Below, piece by piece: positions 1 through 3,000 of a DNA stretch of 4,548 bases. The first letter of the stretch is position 1. Each line of letters begins with the position of its first letter. The stretch is from a virus. Its lineage: Duplodnaviria > Heunggongvirae > Uroviricota > Caudoviricetes. The DNA lies in the IMG/VR virus record IMGVR_UViG_2703718824_000007, positions 1 to 4,548 of that record. One strand, 5' to 3'. The position numbers were made by a program.

Positions 1-3000
1 CCGCACACTCGCGCAGAGGAGTCTCCCTGTCGGGCTGCGGTCTCTGTTAATACGGGAATACGGCGACAATACCGCGCCATGGATAATAAGGTCGCTCAAC
101 ACACTGGCTGTAATGCAGCGGATACCATGCGGCATTTAGCGGCATTCATCGTACACTCAACGGTTAGCTCTTCATTCGTGGCATTCACCTGAAAGGTCCG
201 GGAGTGTAATTGCGTACATTTACCACTGAACGAACCTTCAACAAGAACACGACCACGCTGCAAAATACGGAACGGAATTGTTCCCTGAAAAGGTTCTACG
301 GTTACCCGTAATTTCTTCATGTATCCTCCGGATAATAAAAAGCCAGCTTAGTGCACTGAGTGCGTATATATTCCTGCGCCCCTTCCAGCTGCTTCTGCAT
401 TGTCATCAACCGTTCTCTGAGGTTGAAATAATCCCGTTCAGCGGTGTCTGCCAGTCGGGGGCCGGTTGCATTATCCACGCCGGAGGTGCCGGTGGCTTCA
501 CGCACGGTACCGGTGCAGGTGGCGTTGATCCGCAGGCGCTTACGACCAGCGGCAATATCAGCACGCAGAGTTTCATTTTCAGCTCTCGCATCGGCTAATT
601 CCCTCGAGTATTTTGCATCGAGCGCAGCAACATCACGCTGGCGCACCTGCATGTCAGTAATGGTGGCATTCGCCTGTTCCAGCTCTCTGGCTTTTTTATC
701 GCGCTGCGCTTTGTAGGTGATGGCGTTATCGCGGTAATGATTCAGCCCCAGACTAAGCGCACCACAGACCACCAGCAGAATAACAGTAAACGCGGAAAGA
801 ATTCGGTTTATGCTCACCATGCCCCCTGTCAGAAATTGCAGATTATCAGCTCGCTGACACTGCTTGTCTTACCACGTGGTACAGTATAACGATGAGCAAC
901 ATGATGAATATTCATCCCCTCAAACAATCGTCTCATTTCCTGCGAATCGTTCAGGGATATAATCATTTTGCCTTTTATTGTGCGGGCAAGTTCTGCCATG
1001 CGCTCATAATTGCAGAATGAAAAATCAATGCCGTAACCACCATCCAACCAATACGGAGGATCGCAGTAAAACAGCGTTGTCGGGCGGTCATACCGTGCGA
1101 TACAGACCTCCCAGTCAAGGTGTTCAATAGTTGCCCGCGCCAGCCGATCACGGGCTTCCTGCAATAACTGCTCTGTATTCCCGGGGATTATCTGCGGTCT
1201 GTGAGTTTTAACTCCAAATGCCCGACTGTATGCTCTTCCGCCATACGCGCACTTCTGGATAAAAAAGAAACGGACAGCCCGCTGGATATCCGTCATGTAC
1301 TCCGTGTGCTGATTTATCACCTCATTCCACATCTCACGACTGGCGAGCATCCACTGAAACTGGCGGGAAAATTCCTCCTGGTGGTACTTCACCACACGGT
1401 AGAGATTAACGATATCACTGTTTATATCGTTGATGATTTCAGCGCAGCTCGGTTTTTTCATAAAGAACAGTGCCGCACCGCCACAGAACGGTTCCACATA
1501 CAGAGTGTGCTCAGGAAATAACGGCAGAATATGTTTTGCCAGACGACGCTTCCCTCCTAACCACGGGAGAAACGGTTTTGCAGAGTTATTATTCATTTCA
1601 CCACCAGCGGATTTCCCGGATTAGAACCGCAATTGCCACAATGCGAATGGCAAATGCCGTTGCCCGAATAAATTCAGTACTCATCTGTTTAAATAAATTG
1701 TCGTCATCAGTCACTGTCACCCCACCAGCCCTGCCGAAGTCAACGCCATCCAGGCTATGGAAAGAAAAAGAGCAACCATCATTAGCGAAAATGAAACGCC
1801 GACAATCACACAGATGGTCTTCGCCAGCGTTATGAGTTTGCCTGATATCATTAGACGCCACTCCATCAATCCGTCTTTGTGATTTTTCCTTTGCCTGTAT
1901 CAGCCAGGACAAAACCAATCAGCAGATTCGCTTCGTTTATCAACGTGCGAATTTTTGATACATGCGCGGCTTTAACCAGTTTCCATTCGTTTAACCCTGT
2001 ACCAAACAGACTGGCAATGTTTTTATCCCGTTTCATGTCAGCGCATGCCTGGTTGAGTTCTTCCATCACGCTCATTTGACGAGGATTAACGACAAAACCC
2101 TTCGTCCAGTATTCATAGAGAACATCGTCGCACTCTTCCTGATACTGGATAACCTTGTCGCGGATTCCGGGTTTTACTTTGTTGGGATTGATGGTTTGTA
2201 ACCAGCCTGCAAGTTTTCGAAGTGGCAGGGACACCATATTGCGTCGTTTCCCGTCCTCAGCAACCATAACGATTTCCGTTATAGTTGACGCAAAACGCTG
2301 TCTTAACTTAGCCAACTGTGATTGCCAGGCCAGCCCCATCCCCGCAACGACAGGTTTCATGGGAACGTATGGTTCGCCGTTATGGTTAACCACATAAAGA
2401 GAATCGCCGTGAAACGGCACGGTTATCATATTCATCGGTTATTTCCTTTTAGTGATGAACCCTGCGCACAGGAATAACCAGCCCAAAGAGGGTTAACCAG
2501 ACCACTGCCGGTTATCCACCAGGGCTCATCCTGAAAGGTTCTTTGGTTTATTTACGCTTGTGCGAAGCGCAGAAATGACAAAGGCACCATTACGGTGCCT
2601 CTGCGTGAAATAATGATCCTGACTTTATTCACTTACATTTTGCCAGTTCGCAGGATTTCGTGTTATCCGTCCGCGTTGGCCAACGTCATTTTTCAGCAAA
2701 ATATTCTGCTTATCTGTCGATACCCCAGCATGCCAGCGCACTCTCCTGGTCGCGACGGGATACCTGACCGTAGCAATTATTTGAGCGAATACGGCAGTCT
2801 CTGCCACCGTCCTTAATCCACCAGCGAATCGCTTCGCAGGCACCTTTTCGATCGCCTGCATTAATTCGTTTATAAAACGTCGACGTGAAACACTTACCGG
2901 GGCCAATGTTGTAAGGACAGAATGACGCAATTCCCGCTTTCTGGGGTTCAGTCAGTGGCACTTTGATGTTTTTCTCCACCCATGCCAGCGCCTTATCACG

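Follow-up and report, generated by a model that had tools for sequence, protein, structure and literature searches.

What does the short interval between an antirepressor-like (Ant-like) gene and a DNA adenine methylase gene encode in the lysis region of a lambdoid prophage, and what could its product do there? The question is raised by a 4,548-nt stretch of tailed-phage DNA (IMG/VR record IMGVR_UViG_2703718824_000007, positions 1 to 4,548), which we call the window. On its minus strand, a small open reading frame (ORF) for a very hydrophobic peptide occupies positions 1717..1866. By direct reading of that strand, the Ant-like gene ends with a TGA at 1868-1866, and the ATG of the small ORF (1866-1864) shares its A, which gives the arrangement TGATG. 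The frame continues for 49 codons to a TGA at 1719-1717 and encodes the peptide MEWRLMISGKLITLAKTICVIVGVSFSLMMVALFLSIAWMALTSAGLVG. A preliminary description of the window had reported this 49-codon frame and its overlapping start, and our reading returned the same peptide; an ORF listing extends the frame by one codon in the 5′ direction to a TTG (1717..1869, 50 aa). The evidence given below establishes the small ORF as a genuine protein-coding gene of lambdoid, Shiga toxin (Stx)-type prophages of E. coli and Shigella.

The small ORF had been described as unlisted, which is correct for the ORF track of the window but does not hold for RefSeq, for phage P13374 or for PHROG. In E. coli IBS28, whose sequence at this locus is identical and for which a RefSeq/PGAP (Prokaryotic Genome Annotation Pipeline) annotation exists, precisely the 150-nt coding sequence of the small ORF is annotated as a hypothetical protein, WP_032151794.1. 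The gene is also ORF53 (CCG06197.1) of phage P13374, at the same site after ant, and it matches PHROG 4906, a family of 49 positions, from end to end (residues 1-49 of 49, E 5.1e-27, 94.7 bits). Given the RefSeq coding sequence in IBS28 and ORF53 in P13374, the small ORF is therefore real but not undiscovered: it is already catalogued as a hypothetical protein and hence is not a new gene. These three entries belong to the same family as the small ORF, with identical coordinates in IBS28 and no structural difference. Since all three are labeled "unknown function" or "hypothetical protein," membership gives no function.

To judge whether the frame is maintained by selection, we used a sample of 80 IMG/VR loci, which yielded 24 distinct DNA variants of a 42-codon core. 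Conservation of the frame in related prophages had been suggested as a check in the preliminary description, and the result favors the gene: the small-ORF frame is open in all 24 core variants, and in nearly all cases its neighbor is Rz, the i-spanin gene. On a tree of the variants, we counted 41 synonymous and 54 non-synonymous changes in this frame, while the neutral synonymous fraction is 0.30. The resulting non-synonymous to synonymous rate ratio (omega) is about 0.55 (binomial p = 0.003), better than in any of the other five frames, and only this frame shows a clear synonymous excess; four other frames gave values of 1.1-1.3. In pairwise comparisons of the same loci, the ratio of non-synonymous to synonymous polymorphism (pN/pS) was 0.49 for the small ORF, 0.24 for the last 60 Ant codons and 0.78 for the first 45 Rz codons.

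Two overlapping frames compete with the small ORF, and if either of them were the true gene the 49-codon frame would be incidental, a case to which we give very little credence. One is a 106-aa ORF that starts with a TTG at 1918 (1598..1918, minus strand) and matches phrog_3246 (E 5e-39). This frame, however, behaves neutrally (omega and pN/pS of 1.0-1.1) and contains stop codons in 10 of the 24 variants. Moreover, the homology of the window to Stx phages and other phages ends exactly at 1717, within the stop codon of the small ORF, and the last 22-28 codons of the 106-aa ORF are a piece of another gene, located 5′ of the methylase. Two unrelated segments are thus joined in the 106-aa ORF, which is a chimera. 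We rejected it as a true gene, in agreement with the earlier judgment that it was the less plausible of the two, and PHROG 3246 probably collects out-of-frame gene calls over the small ORF. The other competitor is a 41-aa ORF on the opposite strand (1757..1882, plus strand), which is open in 24/24 variants with an omega of about 0.64. Its third codon positions are shared with those of the small ORF, several lineages have lost its ATG, and the open stretch varies in length between 34 and 111 aa, and so its low ratio is a mirror of the small-ORF signal; this candidate was rejected as well. We also considered a programmed −1 frameshift that would join Ant to the hydrophobic helix, and discarded it: the small-ORF frame is open for only 11 codons in the 5′ direction, and most relatives have GGGAAAATA where the window has the A-run GGAAAAATC, which leaves no conserved slippery site. 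A fusion of the Ant gene and the small ORF in one frame was seen in locus L055 (2431-3150) and in protein P0038. It resembles a single-base deletion near the end of ant; a sequencing error or decay could account for it, as could a natural fusion, which would be rare.

Comparison of the related loci also bears on where translation begins. Among the 49 loci in which an Ant-type gene lies upstream, the TGATG arrangement is the usual context. Five of them depart from it: in L018 the first ATG is out of frame, and in L027-L030 a stop stands at codon 4, whereas the second ATG and the core are intact in all five. Across the Ant-context loci, the residues between the two ATGs vary (EWRL, EWWL, ERWL, GWL). 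The other 33 loci lack the coupled start altogether. In 20 of these, a KilAC-type ANT gene lies upstream and the ORF opens directly with the core (MSDKLI...), AAGGGG or AAGAGG being 5 nt before it; in the remaining 13, the upstream gene is an ORF of 60-71 aa and the small ORF again opens with the core, here with GGGAGGA at a distance of 6 nt. In the window, a Shine-Dalgarno-like GGAG (1861..1864, minus strand) lies 9 nt 5′ of the second ATG, within codons 1-2 of the long form. Each of these three unrelated upstream contexts thus has a Shine-Dalgarno motif 5-9 nt before the core ATG. Judged from these comparisons, the conserved start is the second ATG (1851-1849), because five Ant-context loci break the first methionine and keep the core and 33 loci start at the core; the predicted product is the 43-44-aa core, encoded in the window by 44 codons plus stop (MISGKL...GLVG; 1717..1851, minus strand) and common to all relatives. 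The five-residue extension from the TGATG start would then be optional. The coupled start given in the preliminary description accordingly applies to Ant-context loci, where the second ATG is the part that is conserved. The conserved start at this second ATG is a point missing from existing annotations.

We then asked how widely the gene is distributed. A protein search returned 32 clusters, all from E. coli or Shigella, and a profile search of 1.84 billion representatives gave 29 matches, all to the same family, mostly truncated or frameshifted copies with a few more divergent members; in both databases, every named source was E. coli or Shigella. By tblastn, the core is intact in 276 GenBank phage records, all of them Stx-type or lambdoid phages of E. 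coli/Shigella, and essentially all Stx phages with the ant insert have the small ORF; phage BP-4795, like P13374, carries it. In the GenBank phage rows that we sampled, it is either called "hypothetical protein" or left unannotated, the latter in about two thirds of the annotated rows sampled from Stx-phage records. A blastn search located 4,595 copies, spread over 1,696 of 5,426 complete E. coli genomes, with at most 11 in any one genome; O157:H7 genomes carry several copies each. When one genome per species was scanned, the sole match was a 328-bp contig (L084, NZ_JPLE01000251.1) labeled Xanthomonas pisi DSM 18956, most likely a contamination of that assembly.

The product is predicted to be a peptide of 43-44 residues (49 with the upstream ATG) with a single transmembrane (TM) helix and its N-terminus inside. 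Its only charged residues, E2, R4, K10, and K16, are all N-terminal, within the first 16 positions, and are followed by an uncharged hydrophobic stretch, residues 17-49 (1719..1818, minus strand), for which a TM helix at about residues 17-40 and then a short periplasmic tail are predicted. The best TM windows of 19-23 residues coincide with residues 17-40, with a mean Kyte-Doolittle value of 2.4-2.6 and a summed Hessa dG of about −2.0 kcal/mol, on par with the membrane anchor of Rz. The earlier reading as a small hydrophobic membrane peptide is thus supported, and AlphaFold2, run with the family alignment, returned a single continuous helix over residues 2-45 with a mean predicted local distance difference test score (pLDDT) of 87. 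Following the positive-inside rule, the N-terminus would be cytoplasmic and the periplasmic tail only a few residues long; the peptide would consist of a short basic cytoplasmic N-terminus, (M)ISGKLITLAK, then the TM helix, and would extend a few residues into the periplasm. Eight positions are invariant across the 25 distinct protein variants (S8, K10, S25, F26, S36, W39, L42, G46), and small or polar residues are conserved within the helix (G23, S25, S27, S36, G46), as is C19. We rate the product as an uncharacterised member of the small membrane proteins of phage lysis cassettes.

The junction at the 3′ end of the small ORF, scored in 82 loci, addresses a second point of the preliminary description, in which the position between a regulator-like gene and a methylase was considered unexplained. 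That puzzle disappears once relatives are compared: the normal downstream neighbor is Rz, and the Dam methylase of the window is a rare insertion exactly between the two genes. In 55 of the 82 loci, the TGA of the small ORF overlaps a GTG start of Rz (GTGA); in 20, Rz has another start, an ATG (MNRVL...), separated from the small ORF by 7 nt (AAGAGAG); and in 7, a methylase is found at the junction, namely a Dam cassette in six, the twins of the window included, and another methyltransferase in one. The last case is locus L057 (3129-4073), where an unrelated 314-aa methyltransferase occupies the same junction as the Dam cassette of the window. That cassette (829-1716, minus strand) lies precisely between the stop of the small ORF and the start of Rz; it has no near match among 50,697 phage records, and the full junction of small ORF and Dam occurs in only 4 of the 5,426 complete E. 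coli genomes. As read from these loci, the primary arrangement is Ant, small ORF, Rz, and the placement of the methylase is secondary; the junction of small ORF and Rz looks like a recurrent insertion point for methyltransferase genes. Neither the constant Rz junction nor the insertion of methylases there appears in existing annotations. We infer that the small ORF and Rz were ancestrally coupled in translation: in the ancestral arrangement shown by the comparison, the small ORF is the last gene before Rz, and the GTGA overlap would allow the two to be translated in series; in the window, the inserted Dam cassette has cut this link.

The small ORF is always co-oriented with the holin, endolysin, and Rz genes, and our scans found no sigma-70-like promoter or terminator-like site flanking it. 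The absence of such sites makes it most simply part of the late transcript, and we infer late co-expression within the lysis operon. It is kept with three different sets of lysis genes: an S21-type holin with a lysozyme; holin_8 and holin_3_7 with an M15-type peptidase; and holin_8 and holin_3_7 with a GH108 endolysin. The second set is that of loci L028 and L029, which carry two other holin-like genes plus the M15-type peptidase, and the third that of L085 and L086, where a lipoprotein gene of about 60 aa, and not Rz, follows the small ORF. Because Rz is the neighbor in nearly all cases across the three sets, the small ORF is linked to the Rz end of the cassette rather than to a particular type of holin. 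The lipoprotein predicted in L085/L086 (3140-3322) has a signal peptide ending in ...LLVGC and stands in the place of Rz/Rz1. The same lipoprotein gene is found in phage phiP27 (L090, 2496-2684), where the small ORF is absent; the annotated L32 of phiP27 (51 aa) is apparently in another frame than the 62-aa lipoprotein ORF. Neither in L085/L086 nor in phiP27 was an Rz-type gene called.

What could such a peptide do? Our tentative answer, held at somewhat less than even confidence, is that it may be an accessory, late-expressed inner-membrane factor of the lysis cassette. The preliminary description had named lysis regulators, superinfection-exclusion factors and toxins as candidate roles, and it is by context alone that our data favor one in the lysis cassette. 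It would be made late, together with the spanin, as an accessory inner-membrane component of lysis, and helix-helix contacts in the membrane would modulate when, or how efficiently, the envelope is disrupted; judged by the distribution of the small ORF, the Rz membrane anchor would be the best-fitting partner. Specific mechanisms of this kind are guesses, in which we place lower confidence than in a lysis-related role in general. That the peptide is a dedicated, spanin-coupled inner-membrane helix of Stx-converting and related lambdoid phages, one that sets the timing or efficiency of lysis, is possible but rather doubtful. It is not a core lysis protein, because lambda, HK97, phi80, and P22-type phages have the same Rz family and lack the small ORF.

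Several results weigh against a lysis-cassette role. The Rz family occurs without the small ORF in about 60% of the phage records that carry Rz (698 records with Rz vs. 276 with the small ORF), and in lambda, HK97, phi80, HK620, and P22-type phages, which do not have it, the gene right after that of the endolysin is Rz. The small ORF can also do without coupling to Rz, since it is intact where a methylase separates the genes and since L085/L086 have a lipoprotein gene instead. Purifying selection on the small ORF is only moderate, and there is no one-sided conserved helix face: no signal was present at 100 degrees, and the weak signal near 105 degrees (p = 0.02-0.05, uncorrected) fails correction for the 11 angles tried. 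We found no characterised homologue in Pfam, NCBIfam, PADLOC, or Rfam, and a search of full-text literature, peptide strings included, retrieved no paper on the small ORF. Finally, its place at the 3′ end of a variable insert between the endolysin gene (R) and Rz fits a role as cargo equally well.

This last point leads to the main rival of the lysis-cassette reading, in which the small ORF is accessory cargo: a small inner-membrane peptide that targets a host membrane protein or keeps the DNA of other phages from entering, carried in the R-Rz insert together with antirepressor-like genes. The distribution agrees with it, as the small ORF is found only where the R-Rz interval holds an insert (Ant-type, KilAC-type ANT, or the 60-71-aa ORF), always at the 3′ end of the insert; lambdoid phages with R and Rz directly adjacent do not have it. 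Between the endolysin gene and the insert lies a hairpin that resembles a terminator, and small single-pass inner-membrane exclusion proteins do exist, HK97 gp15 being an example. A moron-type exclusion protein would need an independent promoter and terminator for expression from the repressed prophage. Apart from the hairpin upstream of ant, no such element was seen: simple scans, which could miss weak promoters, gave no promoter-like site before the small ORF or before ant, and so there is no sign of expression in the lysogen. The small ORF has no PADLOC match either, and it is the upstream partner that varies while the Rz junction is the constant feature. On balance, we regard cargo as unlikely.

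The peptide could also be membrane-active in a non-specific way, like a holin or a type I toxin, with oligomers that leak ions, lower the proton-motive force, and so hasten holin triggering and release of the signal-arrest-release (SAR) endolysin. Its strong hydrophobicity and the conserved G23, S25, S27, S36, and G46 in the helix would suit such an activity, and its occurrence with three holin-endolysin sets fits an action independent of the holin. Yet it is without the charged C-terminal domain typical of holins, it matches no family of holins or toxins, searches for an antisense RNA or an Rfam element gave nothing, and up to 11 copies per genome argue against strong toxicity from leaky expression. 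We consider this explanation quite improbable. Even less credible to us is the proposal that translation itself matters and that the ORF is retained chiefly because it brings ribosomes to the Rz GTG with which it overlaps (GTGA). The overlap in 55/82 loci and the only moderate selection on the peptide speak for it; the synonymous excess and the eight invariant positions in 25 protein variants speak against it. It is further weakened because the small ORF is kept where coupling is absent, that is, in the 20 loci where Rz has its own ATG and the AAGAGAG spacer of 7 nt, in the 7 loci separated by a methylase, and in loci without Rz.

The lysis-cassette reading was also set against known systems, and no characterised family gives a clear fit: holin, S21 antiholin, Mu releasin, and i-spanin each have at least one defining feature that the peptide lacks, and a type I toxin finds agreement in size and hydrophobicity but no family match. 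As with holins, the small ORF encodes a small protein with at least one predicted TM helix from a lysis-cassette gene; unlike them, it has no charge after K16, the C-terminus being ...ALTSAGLVG. No holin family in Pfam or NCBIfam was matched, and the sole PHROG match is function-unassigned, whereas the true holin of the window matches PF04971. An antiholin specific for the S21-type pinholin was rejected as an identity for the small ORF, which is also found in holin_8 + holin_3_7 cassettes (L028, L085); no S21-type holin or lysozyme was found in the flanks of these two loci that were examined. Alignments of the small ORF with S21, with the SAR segment of the endolysin, and with neighboring small ORFs gave no score above shuffles.

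The anchor of Rz, encoded by the adjacent gene, is comparable in its hydrophobic helix, and its protein sequence changes at a similar rate. Unlike an i-spanin, however, the small ORF has neither a PF03245 match nor a periplasmic coiled-coil, and only a few residues follow its hydrophobic stretch. That it is a duplicated Rz anchor was rejected, with local alignments giving z = −0.5 to 0.6 vs. shuffles. Type I toxins of the Hok/TisB class and regulators of the AcrZ/MgrB class are about 45-50 aa long, with a single hydrophobic helix and a short basic N-terminus. The small ORF is like them in all three respects, but it has no family match and is embedded in a late phage operon. As for features of type I toxins, we found no toxin family match, no Rfam RNA, and no nearby promoter-like site on either strand, with simple scans that could miss weak promoters.

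Two phage systems offer further parallels. Releasin, gp25 of phage Mu (DUF2730), is a single-pass protein that hardly extends into the periplasm, and its gene lies a few genes downstream of the one for the SAR endolysin; it has 99 aa, an N-out/C-in topology, and a 73-aa acidic cytoplasmic domain (PMC9239132). The small-ORF peptide resembles it in being single-pass, in having almost no periplasmic part, and in being encoded a few genes downstream of a SAR-like endolysin. It differs in its 44-49 aa, in its predicted N-in orientation, in having no soluble domain and no DUF2730 or other Pfam match, and in that it is also found with M15-type peptidase and GH108 endolysins. LydB, LydC, and LydD of phage P1 are examples of accessory small membrane proteins of lysis cassettes, such as antiholins and extra holin-like proteins (PMC9025707). 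The small ORF is like this class, as its membrane protein is encoded in the lysis cassette and probably transcribed along with holin, endolysin, and spanin genes; unlike holins and antiholins, it has no sequence relation to any such family, has one helix and no charged C-terminal tail, and is not tied to one holin type.

The genes of interest in the window all lie on the minus strand and together make up the lysis region of an E. coli prophage of the lambdoid, Stx type; a 601-nt query from the window is 100% identical to three complete E. coli chromosomes, strain IBS28 among them. The lysis cassette starts with a class II holin of the phage-21 S type (pinholin type) of 71 aa (3841..4056; PF04971, E 7e-33; class II holin family protein in RefSeq), followed by a 185-aa protein with function unassigned (3280..3837; phrog_1085, no Pfam match). 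The slot between holin and endolysin genes varies in relatives, being empty or holding proteins of 185 aa, about 222 aa (L003), or 296 aa (L073). The endolysin (2710..3243; phrog_7, PF00959) is a phage lysozyme with a SAR-like N-terminal segment that is weakly hydrophobic; Stx-phage endolysins of this lysozyme type are described as R21-like SAR endolysins (PMC8136144). A gap of 274 nt separates the endolysin gene from that of the Ant-like protein (1866..2435, 189 aa; P22_AR_N and ORF11CD3 domains; phrog_524, E 1e-108; PF10547, E 9e-45). This gap contains a candidate terminator, a stable hairpin CAGAGGCACC-GUAAU-GGUGCCUUUG at about 2585-2615 (minus strand) with a U-rich stretch on its 3′ side. 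The 91-nt region with the hairpin folds at −27.1 kcal/mol (z = −2.55 vs. shuffles); the hairpin resembles a terminator for the endolysin gene, and a simple terminator scan did not list it.

On the other side of the small ORF, the 5′ end of the methylase cassette holds a 28-codon hydrophobic ORF or gene fragment (1598..1684, minus strand; MSTEFIRATAFAIRIVAIAVLIREIRWW), the stop of which is separated from the Dam ATG by 1 nt. Its match to phrog_4493, at the C-terminus of that family, is weak (E 2e-4), and it is loosely like the C-terminal part of the 60-71-aa ORF found 5′ of the small ORF elsewhere (L073, 2777-2992); in IBS28, PGAP annotates 1598-1666 as a hypothetical protein, "incomplete, missing N-terminus." The methylase itself (829..1596, minus strand; 255 aa) is a Dam-type, D12-class DNA adenine methylase (PF02086; PADLOC MTase_II, E 6e-92), whose gene is intact in the window, while RefSeq marks the IBS28 copy as frameshifted. 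After it come Rz (317..820; phrog_13, E 7e-74; PF03245), with the Rz1 o-spanin gene embedded in it (406..591), and a 74-aa ORF (96..320), all three on the minus strand.

For the annotation of these prophages, the useful points are the start at the second ATG, PHROG 3246 as an apparent out-of-frame artefact, and the Rz junction as a point of methyltransferase insertion. If the small ORF proved to be only cargo, or an ORF that couples translation to Rz, it would be an ordinary small prophage gene. It is, however, present in roughly one third of complete E. coli genomes, and if its product modulates lysis it would add an extra component to a pathway that is regarded as well understood. A role in the timing or efficiency of lysis would, moreover, affect phage burst and the release of Shiga toxin, which depends on phage lysis.

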